A stretch of 64,000 nucleotides of DNA from Eledone cirrhosa (Eukaryota), in NCBI GenBank assembly GCA_964016885.1, contig CAXHJY010000075.1, positions 124,001 to 188,000 on the forward strand, read 5' to 3'. Of the stretch, positions 17,275 through 44,515 are shown in pieces; position 1 is the first letter of the stretch, and every line of letters begins with the position of its first letter. The translations under genes were made by a program, and so were the position numbers. Under the pieces are notes generated by a model. That model had not been told where the DNA came from, searched no databases, and worked only from the letters and a program-made list of their open reading frames with translations.

Positions 17275-17446
17275 ATATTGTTATACTTTGGGAGGGTCAT
17301 GTTGCCAATAAGAAACACATGCACCAGTGTGTTTCTTATTGGCAACATGACCCTCCCAAAGTATAATATGACCCTCCCAAAGTATAACAATATCGGTTTC
17401 AACACACGATTTCAGATAAAGAATCTTGCTAAACAAATTCAGAAAC
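17275..17446 (+). mobile_element. Minimal fold-back insertion of the PLE family found at 33443-36748
   Basis: ~45-bp inverted arm, then the 3' terminus with a 20-bp internal duplication and the 53-nt tail; flanked by (TA)n. Confidence 0.88.
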
Positions 17447-18305
17447 GAAATATATATATATATATATATATATATATATATATAAACGGAAAAAATGAAA
17501 CGATATTTCATTTCCCACTCTTAGAACGGCTGTTACTTAAATATAAGTATGTACACGTACATACATATATGTATACCGACGTACAGTAGTATGTATATAT
17601 ATATATACATACATGCACACATATATATATGCACGTATGGATTCACCGAATATTTATTATAATGCTCGGTGTGTTTGTAAACATATATATATGCAAAAGT
17701 TTTATTTTAAATTGTTGGGTTACAACGAATAAATATTTTATAACTGATATAAAGCACTCAACAAGTTCTGGAGTAGATATACGATATTAAACAAATGGAA
17801 ACTATATTTATAAAACCATATTTATTTCATTATACATATTTCAGGGATACCATATTAGAAATATGGCAGGTTTAGAGCACTCAAAAAGTTCCTGGAGCAA
17901 AAGATCAATGAAAATAAGCATTACATCACTGTATGTAATTATGCATATACATACATACATACATACATATATATATATATATATATATATATATATATAT
18001 ATATATATATATATATATATATATATATATATATATATATATATATATATATATATATATATATACACATATATACATATATATACATACACACATACAC
18101 ACAAACACAACCACAGAAATACACACATACTTACATATACGTATATATATATATACACACACACATAGGAAAATGTCTGACCCCACGGCAGAGCTGAAGC
18201 CGTTTCTGAGTCTATTATATATATACACACAAAACCATTATATAAAAAATACATATATACTCACAAATATACACCTGCCCATACACACACATTAAATCTA
18301 TATAT

Positions 18306-18908
18306 GGTGGCTGCCAACTCGTTTTCGAGTACGGCCACTACTTTATATCCATGTAGGAGAACCCTGCTGATGCGCTGAACGAGTGTGACTTTTTAGTCCA
18401 GCCAGCGACTTGAAAACTCTGGTACCAACACTACACTTGTGACAATTATTGACACATAGTGCTGGGCCCATGTGACGACAAGTGCAGAGAGATCTCCAGA
18501 TATAAAGCAATGCCTGTGCCGTGAAGCTTTTATAGTGAGCAAAGGCACTGCACAAAGCCAGTCCCACTCTCTTAACCAAGATGATATTTACCAAAAAGAA
18601 GAACAAGTCAACATCATTGGATACCATCAGGGTTGCAGGTGTTATATCAGAGTTTTCCTTCTCCTAGAATTCTGCCTTGACAAAGGCTAAGGGGTCATCT
18701 CTCCCGGTGATTTTGGATGGCAATTGACTCTTAAGAGCTCCTTTGCTCTTTGACAGGTTTTGTATTTAGTCTTGCAGGATGTCCAAAGTCACCCTCCTCA
18801 CGAAGAAACCTTGGTGGGGTTGCCAGTTTAGTCGCCAATGACCCGACCATGAGACAGGTTGTACTGGGATACATGTTACCAGTAGCACCAACTGGTGACC
18901 TGACATAC
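18306..18908 (-). mobile_element. Complete ~600-bp non-autonomous bipartite RTE element
   Basis: 12-bp TSD AAATCTATATAT (18294-18305, 18909-18920); RTE 5'-UTR motif CTAGGAGAAGGAAAACTCTGA joined to an RTE 3' end; second copy at 41461-42051. Confidence 0.85.
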
Positions 18909-19937
18909 AAATCTATATATACACACATACATACACACACATATATACATATATATACATACATATATATAGAGATAATATATACACACACGCACAAATA
19001 CAACACAAGTATATAATATACAATTATATATACATATACATATACATATACATACAGATAGATATAAACATACATACACACACATACATACACATATACA
19101 TATGCACACACATATACATACACATTTATATACACATACATATATATATATACATATATATACATATATACACATATACATACATATACGCAACACACAA
19201 AAAAAATAAATATCTAAAAATAAAAATATTTGGTATGTGAAGGGTAAGGCAGAAAATAGGGGGGGGGGGAATAAATGACATAGGAAAAGGTTTAAATATA
19301 AGGGGAGATAAGGGAGAAAGAGAATACGAGAGTACAGCAGGTAAAAAAAACCGTAGTGGAAGTAAAGGGCAGGAAAGGAGTTCAAAGTGATTTGGAGGGA
19401 TGGGGGGGGGGGGGGGTAATAGCTTGTTAGTACTGGTCTTTATTCTCTAATTAAATCCATTGTCTCACCTGCTCACAAAACATACTGTTTACAGAAATGG
19501 ATACGCTACGTTGAATCCCAAAACATCTGAAACATTTCCTTCGTAGACGACCTGAAGTTGTAAGGGCCAAATATTAACCCCCATACCAATAGGCAACTAC
19601 ATCACTTTACATAATATCCCACATGCTTTGAAATGAAATTACGTAAATCCAAACTTGCAGGTTTGGCAGTAAAACTTGTTTTCTAAAAGAGAAAAAAAAA
19701 ACAGAAAGAAACTAAACATGTAAGATATACAATGCAATCTATAGATTTGGCTATTTTGAACAAAGGAAGAATGTTAATAAGGATAGCGCAAGAAATGACT
19801 ACATCAAGAGCATAAAGGATATAAGGTCATTTCAATCTTTAGTCTACAAATATATCACTCACAACATATTTTATGTGTTTATTCAGTCACCAAGATTGGT
19901 CCTTCTAAATTAATTACTACAGGAACCTATTAGAATA

Positions 19938-20264
19938 CAGTTGTACCCCGGTATTCGCGGGGGTTAGGGTCCTAGAGCACTCACGAAGAGTGAAAAACCG
20001 GGAATATTGGATGTGATCCATAAAAATGTCTAAAGACGTCAAAACATAACGTAAAATATAGACCGGCAAATACGGTATATTGTTATTAATAAGTTAGCGT
20101 TAAAAAGCGCGAAAATATATATTGTCACGAAAAAAGCCATTAAAAAATCGCGGAAGATATTTACGATTCCTCGAATATGCAGTGGTTTCCACGAACAATT
20201 ATTAGTTAGGTCTCTAAGGAAATTTCCGCGAATAACCGGAACCGCAAATTCCGGGGGTACACTG
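19938..20264. mobile_element. Tc1/mariner (pogo/Tigger-like) MITE inside a degraded LINE remnant
   Basis: TIRs CAGT(T)GTACCCC ... GGGGTACACTG; TA on both flanks. Confidence 0.8.
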
Positions 20265-20639
20265 TATATTTTAAAAAGTCGAGAATTGTTCAATAAAACT
20301 GGAAATTACAGCAATCATTGGAGAAGTAAACAAATTTATATACACCATCCAGAGAGAGATGACGGATTGTAAGACTGAAGCAACATTTTCAGCAAAAAAA
20401 AAAAACCAGTCCAAGCTGTACCTTGCTTAAGTTTGTGAACACAAAAATATCATTAGGATAGACAATGAATTTCAAGAGAAACAAAGTTAAAGCAGATACT
20501 GTCTCTCCCTAAAGTACACTGGAAAATTCTATTTAATACTACAACAAAACAAAGAATGAAATAGACCACTTCTCTTAAAAGGTTGAAAGTGGAGACTGGA
20601 AAGCGAAACGCAAAAATCGAAACGCAAAAACGGATATGT

Positions 20640-42051: not shown

Positions 42052-42560
42052 TATGTATGTATGTATATAGGTATGTATGTGTGTGTGTATGTATGTATAT
42101 ATATGTATGTGTGTATGTATAAATGTGCGTATGTATGTATGTACGTAAGTATGTATGTATGTATGAATCTATGTATGTATGTATATATGTATATATGTAT
42201 TGTATGTATATATGTTTGTATGTATATATTGTATGTATGTATTGTATGTAGATATGCATGTATGTACGTACGTAAGTATGCATGTTTGTATGTATGTATG
42301 CATATATATATGCTTGCATACATATATGTATGTATGTATATATACATGCATACATATATGTATGTATGTATGCATGCATATATGTATGTATTCATATATG
42401 TATGTACATATGGATATATCTATATATGGATATATGCATATATGTATGTATTCATGAATGTATGTATGTATACATACATATATGCATGCATGTATGCATG
42501 TATGCATGTATGCATGTATGCATGTATGCATTATATATGTATGTATGCATGCATTTATGT
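42052..42560. repeat. Degenerate (TATG)n microsatellite
   Basis: Direct reading of the sequence. Confidence 0.9.
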
Positions 42561-42988
42561 ATTTTATTACGTATCAAAGTTTTAAAGTTACTAAGTACTA
42601 AGATTGAAAAATACCAAAATAAATGTTGAACTTTATAAATATTGAATTACTATATAATAGCATTAAGCTATTTTATATAATGATTTCAATTGTACAGATT
42701 ATTTCTAGAATTGTTAGATTGATGTTGATGTTGATGTTATGTGTAACCAAATAAATGTTTACTTCAATATTCTTAGAAATCTTTATTGAAGCAATTACAG
42801 CTTAGAATAATGATTTTAGCCATTCAGAAAGACATCAAGATACTTAACTTCATTTTAAATTTAGCATTTATTTCTTGGTGTCAACATTTTCGTCGCATTA
42901 ACGACCTGGTCATTGACACAGTTTCACTGCAACTTACTTCAAATATAAATATATCTGTGTGTGTGTGTGTGTGTGTGTGTATATATAT

Positions 42989-43170
42989 ATAGGAGTAAGT
43001 AAGACCCCGACGGCTGAGCTCAAGCCGTTTCGACGGCTAATTAGCCGTCGAAACGGCTTGAGCTCAGCCGTCGGGGTCTTACTTACTCCTATTACCCACT
43101 CTACTACCCCAAGTATTGAGTACTTTGGTGCGTTATGGTCCACCTGGTTCCTTACCACTTTTCCTTCGCT
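42989..43170 (+). mobile_element. Tiny Naiad-terminus fold-back: perfect 104-bp palindrome plus ~78-nt tail
   Basis: 42989-43092 is self-complementary with no spacer; the right half and tail are homologous to the reverse complement of 44540-44665. Confidence 0.8.
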
Positions 43171-43604
43171 ATATATATATATATATATATATATACAAAC
43201 ATATATATATATGTGTGTGTGTGTGTATATATACATACATACACAACCAATTATATATATGTATGTATATATATATATGTGTATATATATATATATATAT
43301 ATATATATATATATATATATATATATATATATATATATATATATATATATATATATACAAACATATATATATGTGTGTGTGTGTGTATATATACATACAT
43401 ACACAACCAATTATATATATGTATGTATATATATATGTGTATATATATATATATATATATATATATATATATATATATATATATATATATATATATATAT
43501 ATATATATATATAGGAACAAGTAAGACCCCGACAGCAGAGTTCAAGCCGTTTCGACGGGTATTTCTGGACTAAAAAAAAAAAAAGAAAAAAAAATAGCCG
43601 TTAT

Positions 43605-44515
43605 ATATTGTTATACTTTGGGAGGGTCATGTTGCCAATAAGAAACACACGCACCAGCTGCTTTCTCTCCAATTTATTATAAATTAAATTATAAATTTAA
43701 GAAATTTATAAATTTCCGGTTGGTTGGTTCCACAACCGGATGGTTGTTCATATATTGTCAAAGTTCTTTCGTCACACATTCTGTGACCTCATGTAAAGAT
43801 AAGAATATAGTGTACATAGGTGAGACACCTCGTAGTATAGGAGAACGATTAAATGAACACTGGCGAGAGCTTCAAGATAGAAAAGACTCATCAGTACTCC
43901 ACCAACATGCTAAAATAGAACATAAGGGCAAATAAGAGAACATAGAAATAAAAATAAAATCTACTCACAGAAAAGACGCAATGTTTAGACAAATCACAGA
44001 GGCAATAAACATAAATGAACTCCAATCAAAATTAAATAGAAAACCTGAATGGAATAGCAACATCACAACTTACAATTAAGGACAAAATGAAAACACACAC
44101 ACGCACATAGAACAAACAACCAGCTAGTAACATGTAAATAAACAAATAAAAACACACACAGACACTCGGATGTGGCGCATGCGCAAACTAAGCACACAAC
44201 ACACACAAAAACAAGATGGCGTAGGACAGAACAAAGGAGAGGCACAAAACAAAGAAAAGAATCCCCGGTCACTGATGAGGTCACATAATGTGTGACGAAA
44301 GAACTTTGACAATATATGAACAACCATCCGGTTGTGGAACCAACCAACCGGAAATTTACAAATTTCTTAAATTTATAATTTAATTTATAATAAATTGGAG
44401 TGAGAGCAACTGGTGCGTGTGTTTCTTATTGGCAACATGACCCTCCCAAAGTGTAACAATATCGGTTTCAACACACGTTTTCAGATAAAGAATCTTGCTA
44501 AACAAATTCAGAAAC
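43605..44515 (+). mobile_element. Medium-sized fold-back insertion of the 33443-36748 PLE family
   Basis: Inverted arm 43605-43792, then a GIY-YIG fragment (YIGETPRSIGERLNEH), 3' UTR and the 53-nt tail. Confidence 0.9.
44268..44310 (+). ncRNA. Minimal type I hammerhead ribozyme motif
   Basis: GTCA-CTGATGA-G-GTCACA(TAATG)TGTGAC-GAAA-G(AA)C-TT-TGAC. Confidence 0.73.

Follow-up and report, generated by a model that had tools for sequence, protein, structure and literature searches.

How does a retroelement come to be inserted as two head-to-head copies of itself, with a short tail on only one of the two arms? The question is raised by a stretch of 64,000 nucleotides (nt) from Eledone cirrhosa (assembly GCA_964016885.1, contig CAXHJY010000075.1, positions 124,001 to 188,000 of the forward strand), referred to here as the window, which carries three such fold-back insertions of a Penelope-like element (PLE), copies A, B and C. 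In each, the inverted arm starts at one point of the element, termed the inner site or site I, while the sense arm runs beyond that point towards an outer site, site T. A sequence-only reading of the window had proposed that the RNA is primed at two fixed points on opposite target strands and that the two complementary DNAs (cDNAs) are joined at variable truncation points. The arms and tails of the three copies are as follows, ORF denoting the open reading frame of the element.

17275..17453, strand '.', copy A: inverted arm from site I at 17275-17328, followed by the sense arm with the full 60-nt tail ending GAAATAT
17394..17453, + strand, tail of copy A from site I to site T, 60 nt, equal to the ORF start in tandem copies
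33443..34360, - strand, inverted arm of copy B, tail-less, 918 nt, from site I
34361..36748, + strand, sense arm of copy B, 5'-truncated, with its tail at 36696-36748
43605..43792, - strand, inverted arm of copy C, 188 nt, from site I
43791..44515, + strand, sense arm of copy C, with its tail at 44463-44515

All three copies were inspected and proved to be real fold-backs with a common left start and tail: an identical 21-mer stands at 17275, 33443 and 43605, the inverted arms measure 54, 918 and 188 nt in copies A, B and C, respectively, and the inner junctions are all different. The sense arms run 53 nt (CGGTTTCAAC...CAGAAAC) past the start point of the inverted arm. This tail had been described as exactly 53 nt and invariant, which requires amendment, as copy A runs on for a further 7 nt (GAAATAT after CAGAAAC, 17447-17453), copies B and C having shorter ends, and the usual offset in the family is 60 nt, individual offsets running from about 53 to 60. 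On the left of copy C the TA amounts to no more than about 3 nt, the copy adjoining another repeat there. Copy A also contains a 21-nt tandem duplication inside its sense arm (17347-17367), and the arms of copies B and C each diverge by 3-4% from their own partners.

The family is abundant far beyond chance, since a 26-mer of the element gave 26,757 exact genome-wide matches against 0 for its reversed control. Exact matches across the two sites were then counted genome-wide, with reversed-sequence controls of 0. At site I, 15,034 ended into TA and 13,062 read through, and at site T 12,945 ended into TA and 481 read through. Within the element both sites read AATAT followed by CG and lie 60 nt apart; in insertions the AATAT is followed by (TA)n. 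Among fetched copies, 97 of 107 inner ends fell at one base (a set that includes about nine ends of a sister family, described below), and the arm starts are thus fixed, as the sequence-only reading had supposed, and not scattered. At 112 tailed ends, about two of them from the sister family, CAGAAAC was followed by GAAATAT in 69, by GATATAT in 14 and by AATATAT in four, with others rarer, and ends other than the full 60-nt form were mostly up to 7 nt shorter. As GAAATAT is element sequence at tandem junctions and was present at 69 of these 112 ends, the modal offset was set at 60 nt. Two rare alternative ends were also seen, one at an extra ACAATAT site just downstream of a hammerhead-like motif (inverted arm of locus L075) and one at a sister-type site 15 nt inside T (G000:C1:15388265).

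At the tandem junction CAGAAAC is followed by GAAATATCGTAAG and leads into the ORF, with the tail in frame and the ATG preceding the inner end by about 25 nt.

36670..36672, + strand, ATG that opens the ORF of the element in tandem copies, the tail being codons ~9-28

The tail is the N-terminal coding start of the ORF. It is likewise the ORF start in rotifer Pen2a and in D. virilis Penelope (PMC3846280, PMC2377424; these and all papers cited below are drawn on in part only). Because the tail runs into the ORF at the 481 exact tandem-junction matches, sites I and T are both internal, and the proposal that one priming point is the RNA's 3' end had to be abandoned.

Copies with two recognisable ends followed a strict pairing rule. 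Among 91 of them, 88 combined one end at I with one at T (I+T), three were T+T and none was I+I. The core of this set was a position-ordered sample, for which the 26-mer matches listed for contig C1 up to 19.3 Mb, 100 in all, were fetched with their surroundings and nine sister-family rows were dropped, leaving 69 insertions (two of the 69 stretches gave no call, and the 26-mer anchor is blind to tailed arms too short to reach it). These comprised 38 I+T, one T+T and no I+I, together with 30 with one recognisable end. Two-ended fold-backs thus made up 39 of the 69, so that they are the majority route, in line with the earlier suggestion. Since ends at I are roughly as frequent as ends at T, free choice would make half of the pairs homotypic, against which I+T in 38 of 39 position-ordered pairs has a p of 1e-10. 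The rest of the set consists of 26 pairs that came out of similarity searches and the window, and of another 26 drawn from coordinate lists and picked to include homotypic candidates; it excludes window copy A, an I+T pair that its duplication splits, as well as two copies that are duplicated and two pairs of the sister family. Five homotypic candidates were fetched, from the coordinate lists and one other source; two were true T+T and three turned out to be separate I+T or one-ended copies.

The geometry of the arms argues for two strands. In the 88 I+T pairs the I arm reached further upstream in 49, the T arm in 33 and both equally far in 6, so that the short arm is by no means always the tail-less one. 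In 8 of the 88 the T arm was only 12-49 nt long and stopped short of site I, and there is therefore no palindrome in those; three further minimal insertions of about 50-60 bp were also non-palindromic, as judged by eye. Since a cDNA that copies itself cannot give such geometry, two separately made minus-sense strands are indicated.

The two arms of an insertion also share a source. Over 70 pairs and 18,309 aligned bases, divergence was 3.5% within a pair and 7.0% across copies, and it was lower within the pair in 65 of the 70. In subfamily-diagnostic comparisons the arms of one insertion agreed in 906 of 961 (94%), against 55% expected, and among rare variants between arms 81 were shared and 545 unshared. 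The inner junctions differed among copies and were enriched in microhomology, as 19 of the 33 junctions without an insertion had at least 2 nt of it, compared with 16% in simulated ones, which agrees with the proposed joining of variable inner ends. At 15 of 89 junctions the arms stopped within 15 nt of each other, compared with 3.8 on permutation; a common broken RNA end would yield such symmetric stops, and hairpin priming could do so as well. As a separate observation, inner truncations in the position-sampled arms clustered at unit positions of about -301 to -321, -242 to -255 and -146, close to sequence of low complexity, to the 5' border of the hammerhead-like motif and to an AT palindrome, and these clusters may be alignment effects.

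The same rule was followed by two other families. The sister PLE (3,601 matches; L078, L093 and L222-L263, with a tandem junction at L260) has an endonuclease about 50% identical to that of the main family and shares its ORF start and site I, its tail ending mainly at +45 and rarely at about +57 to +60. Pairs called by hand were nine I+T and one I+I. A third family, unrelated in sequence, is represented in the window by the following fold-back.

42989..43171, strand '.', third-family fold-back with a tail-less arm and an arm with a ~79-nt tail, in (TA)n

Here 19 pairs were I+T and two had T with an I-like end, giving 0 of 21 homotypic, and 22 copies were one-ended. This family is likely a PLE; no RT (reverse transcriptase) ORF could be tied to it. 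Further arms of it lie at 43512-43600 and 44545-44660, with copy C between two of them, and immediately upstream of its inner end the family has a hammerhead-like motif; it looks like a miniature inverted-repeat transposable element (MITE), yet is asymmetric.

Paired internal priming on both target strands, with the resulting cDNAs joined, is in our view probably the best explanation of these insertions, the template likely being one RNA. We infer the enzymatic steps, and the single template molecule, from the ends, the pairing rule, the ORF-start tail, the common source alleles and the junction statistics. A tandem or circular transcript would hold the ORF end, the pseudo-long terminal repeat (pseudo-LTR) and the ORF start. 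The RT-endonuclease, likely as a dimer, would cut both strands of (TA)n, and one 3'-OH would anneal at site I and the other at site T. The I-primed RT would move ahead, with the T-primed RT behind it displacing the first cDNA once past site I, and both would stop early, at times at the same RNA break. The 3' ends of the cDNAs would then be joined, by way of short microhomology or with filler, and fill-in would leave a head-to-head insertion whose tail is one-sided, whereas a single surviving cDNA would give a one-ended copy. Of the two-strand priming model first put forward, this retains the two fixed points, the TA microhomology and the opposite strands, with the priming step itself as an inferred one, and drops the point at the RNA 3' end.

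Several results weigh against this reading. One-ended copies were unexpectedly long, their median being about 1,000 nt (n=30) against 260 nt for paired arms (n=78), and a second route is required for the T+T pairs, three in number, and for the single I+I pair of the sister family. The shared alleles point to the same source locus or subfamily and not to the same molecule, and arm-to-arm conversion or time-layered subfamilies could add to that signal. Insertions were scored at 41 of 74 asymmetric junctions, but in simulation noise alone already gives 44%, and therefore only 33 junctions inform the microhomology test; moreover, an AT-rich self-complementary stretch contains or adjoins six of the 15 symmetric stops. 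Priming from one RNA needs strand displacement, and the trailing arm was the longer in 33 of 88 pairs, neither having a known precedent in a PLE. The start site of PAc (Poseidon of Anolis carolinensis) is reported as non-homologous to the cut DNA and as showing no difference between strands (PMC11167929). Neither target-site duplications (TSDs) nor empty alleles were resolved, flank sharing being about null save at two or three imperfect microsatellites; the flank test showed no clear excess, and any TSD would be hidden in (TA)n.

Two loci deserve mention with regard to target sites. At L177 (G000:C1:16997600-16999600) a fold-back has the same (TA)n-GGAAAAAAGATGAAT-TA stretch on both sides, a possible long target duplication and one clear case in 91. 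At 31479-31932 the window contains a palindromic repeat with a central TA run, which is the empty form of the target struck by the fold-back of L064.

The best-surviving alternative is dual priming from two RNAs of the same source locus by an asymmetric dimer, one subunit of which always uses I and the other T. Arms could then overlap and be of any length with no strand displacement, and the rare T+T pairs would be allowed; dual priming has been postulated for L1 (PMC2837659). The absence of I+I (0 of 91), however, would have to come from an asymmetry built into the dimer, and the surplus of arms with a common stop does not follow from this reading. We hold it to be unlikely. We give a still lower probability to the view that the ends are not priming sites at all, the endonuclease instead cutting at the two AATAT sites to resolve a palindromic DNA intermediate. 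The sequence of both sites, AATAT then CG, would suit this, while the non-overlapping minimal I+T copies and the junction microhomology suit two separately made strands. To our knowledge, no strand-transfer activity has been described for GIY-YIG enzymes. Endonuclease-mediated resolution has been given as the origin of the tail by Craig et al. 2021 (PMC8557442), and the AT-rich DNA cut by PAc includes its own ORF-pLTR junction, but the RT starts of PAc in vitro map to the tail boundaries (PMC11167929).

PMC3846280 proposes self-priming: one cDNA, or an antisense template in the case put forward for rotifer Penelope, turns back on itself and serves as its own template. It would fit the enriched symmetric junctions (15 of 89) and the alleles shared between arms, and may account for that subset. 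A self-copy must nest in the first cDNA, however, and the tail-less arm reached further upstream in 49 of 88 pairs with no overlap in 8 of 88. As a general route it is thus excluded unless later deletions shortened most tailed arms, and we regard it as very improbable. We think it no more credible that long head-to-head I+T palindromes later collapsed through asymmetric central deletions. Junction microhomology and the shorter length of paired arms relative to one-ended copies would follow, but young pairs (0-1% arm divergence) are already very unequal and contain complex templated fillers, and the I+T rule is left unexplained.

Palindromes and (TA)n are prone to artefacts of reading and assembly. 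Raw Illumina reads of restriction-site associated DNA (RAD), from three samples of one separate study, were aligned to the tandem junction of L077. Read depth fell across I, from 6,485 to 4,103 in X19, and across T, from 2,694 to 84; loose (TA)n ends at I numbered 2,731 and 2,454 in two RAD runs, and opposite-strand joints were found in all three samples. Short-read contigs had loose TA ends at I and at T. Many other inversion joints occurred in independent reads or contigs, but no single one was shown to bridge the junction of copy C itself. With depth steps at both sites and strand-switch joints in raw reads of other samples, divergent arms in copies B and C and an asymmetry that is fixed and family-specific, a fold-back artefact, raised as a danger at the outset, is effectively refuted at the level of the family.

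The coding capacity of the element is best seen in copy B.

34367..36181, + strand, 604-aa open frame of copy B with RT (YVDD), a CX4CxxC linker and the start of a GIY-YIG domain, the stop falling inside the endonuclease
36510..36553, + strand, minimal hammerhead-like motif (CUGAnGA, stem II, GAAA) in the pseudo-LTR, found by eye

On its coding sequence the element is a PLE with an endonuclease (EN+ PLE), having a single ORF with RT plus a GIY-YIG domain at its C-terminus. Pfam gave GIY-YIG at E 7e-4 and RVT_1 at E 0.02, both under the curated cut-offs. There were 163 homologues at E<=1e-10, with the same layout in those inspected, and the top named-protein match was an Octopus vulgaris hypothetical protein at 66% identity, which points to an octopod as the probable host. 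The linker CIDKKCIIC between RT and endonuclease, together with the C-terminal position of the latter, fits the CX2-5CxxC pattern given for Neptune in PMC8557442, which is common to Nematis. Linker and domain order would fit Neptune or Nematis, and the label was kept at 'Neptune-like' because the homologue search gave no clade-labelled reference sequences. A full, frameshifted unit of about 4.0 kb was present in L077, preceded by a partial tandem, and partial-tandem pseudo-LTR junctions with ORF start and tail were found in L075, L077, L086, L091 and L096. In the sister family stem II of the hammerhead-like core is altered yet still paired, as judged by eye. Rfam gave no match to the motif and elsewhere only spurious simple-repeat matches or none, a PDB sequence search gave no match, and a scan of metagenomes for loci from other hosts found none. 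Truncation at the hammerhead cut site was considered and set aside, there being no excess of inner ends there.

Much of this has precedent, as inverted copies, an often one-ended tail, two internal starts and the extension of both strands are all known (PMC11167929, PMC8557442, PMC3846280, PMC2377424, PMC2837659, bioRxiv 10.64898/2026.07.22.740005). Canonical EN+ PLEs (Penelope/Poseidon, Neptune, Nematis, Naiad) likewise have pseudo-LTR partial tandems, a head-to-head inverted copy, an ORF-start tail often at one end, (TA)n targeting and a hammerhead-like motif, for which the core seen by eye here is a candidate (PMC8557442, PMC3846280, PMC2377424). Their tails are 30-40 bp, in contrast to the 60 nt found here (45 in the sister and ~79 in the third family), and the parts of these accounts that were drawn on describe the tail as optional or often one-sided, give no pairing count and explain it by endonuclease resolution or self-priming. 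PAc (Frangieh et al. 2024, PMC11167929) shares two adjacent internal RT starts that delimit the tail, cutting and extension of both target strands, a predicted dimer and an AT-rich target. It belongs to another clade and its starts are reported to lack target homology, whereas here both sites are AUAU matching (TA)n; the portions of that paper used here do not tie the two starts to opposite strands or inverted copies, and their scenario is ordinary second-strand synthesis. In L1 twin or dual priming, too, both target strands prime cDNA to give an inversion joined at the inner ends (PMC2837659), with TSDs seen. There, however, priming first takes place at the 3' end, on the poly(A), with a second site that varies, and the arms have lost sequence internally; here there is no poly(A), each site is fixed and lies inside the RNA, overlap of the arms is the usual state (8 of 88 lack it), any TSDs would be hidden in (TA)n and the route is the majority one. 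Junction microhomology of the L1 type was also found here (19 of 33 against the 16% null).

Other repeats were noted in passing. Pieces of the element form tandem arrays with periods of 46 nt and about 313 nt (G000:C1:132947049-132947576 and C1:34853600-34855100). An older, different RT and GIY-YIG element lies at 46066-47894 (-) in the window and is interrupted by a SINE-like (short interspersed nuclear element-like) insertion, which seems to have a target duplication some 17 nt long. From their translations, we take 708-6000 and 48117-64000 to be a nested cluster of long interspersed nuclear elements with an APE-like endonuclease, RT and a zinc-knuckle ORF1, and 22058-23063 and 27887-30318 to be DNA transposase-like frames. 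The repeat at 7880-8035 and its copies are presumably SINE-like and unrelated to the fold-backs.

One-sided tails and two internal starts are already published; the pairing rule and the same-source evidence are new. Neither the I+T rule nor a paired-priming model was found in print, although supplementary figures S1-S2 of PMC11167929 may bear on pairing. More tentatively, and at less than even probability, paired internal priming may be the normal integration step of PLEs, distinct from the target-primed reverse transcription of LINE type, with an RT-endonuclease dimer loading one RNA at both tail-bounding sites and priming both break ends at once. Sites I and T would possibly be brought together as the base of a stem-loop. 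In the sister family a perfect 8-bp stem or inverted repeat links the two sites, exactly at the +45 end. In the main family the 74-nt tail folds with both AUAU paired, but with z of about 0; a longer context prefers another fold, and site T ranks 20 of 105 as partner. A stem pairing both sites, exact in the sister and statistically unsupported in the main family, is thus an unproven idea.

PLEs are the sister group of telomerase RT, and the origin of their inverted repeats and one-sided tails is called open in PMC8557442, while the steps after priming were left unvalidated in PMC11167929. The strict I+T rule in three families leads to a prediction for the PAc system, namely that the two target strands use different starts on the same RNA. 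For annotation, the 3' end of these elements is corrected to the ORF start, and short copies mimic MITEs. In this 3-Gb genome one family has spread thousands of palindromes over (TA)n tracts, and if paired priming is indeed the norm, the tail would be the footprint of the dimer and the inverted copies with one-sided tails across PLE clades would be its direct product.

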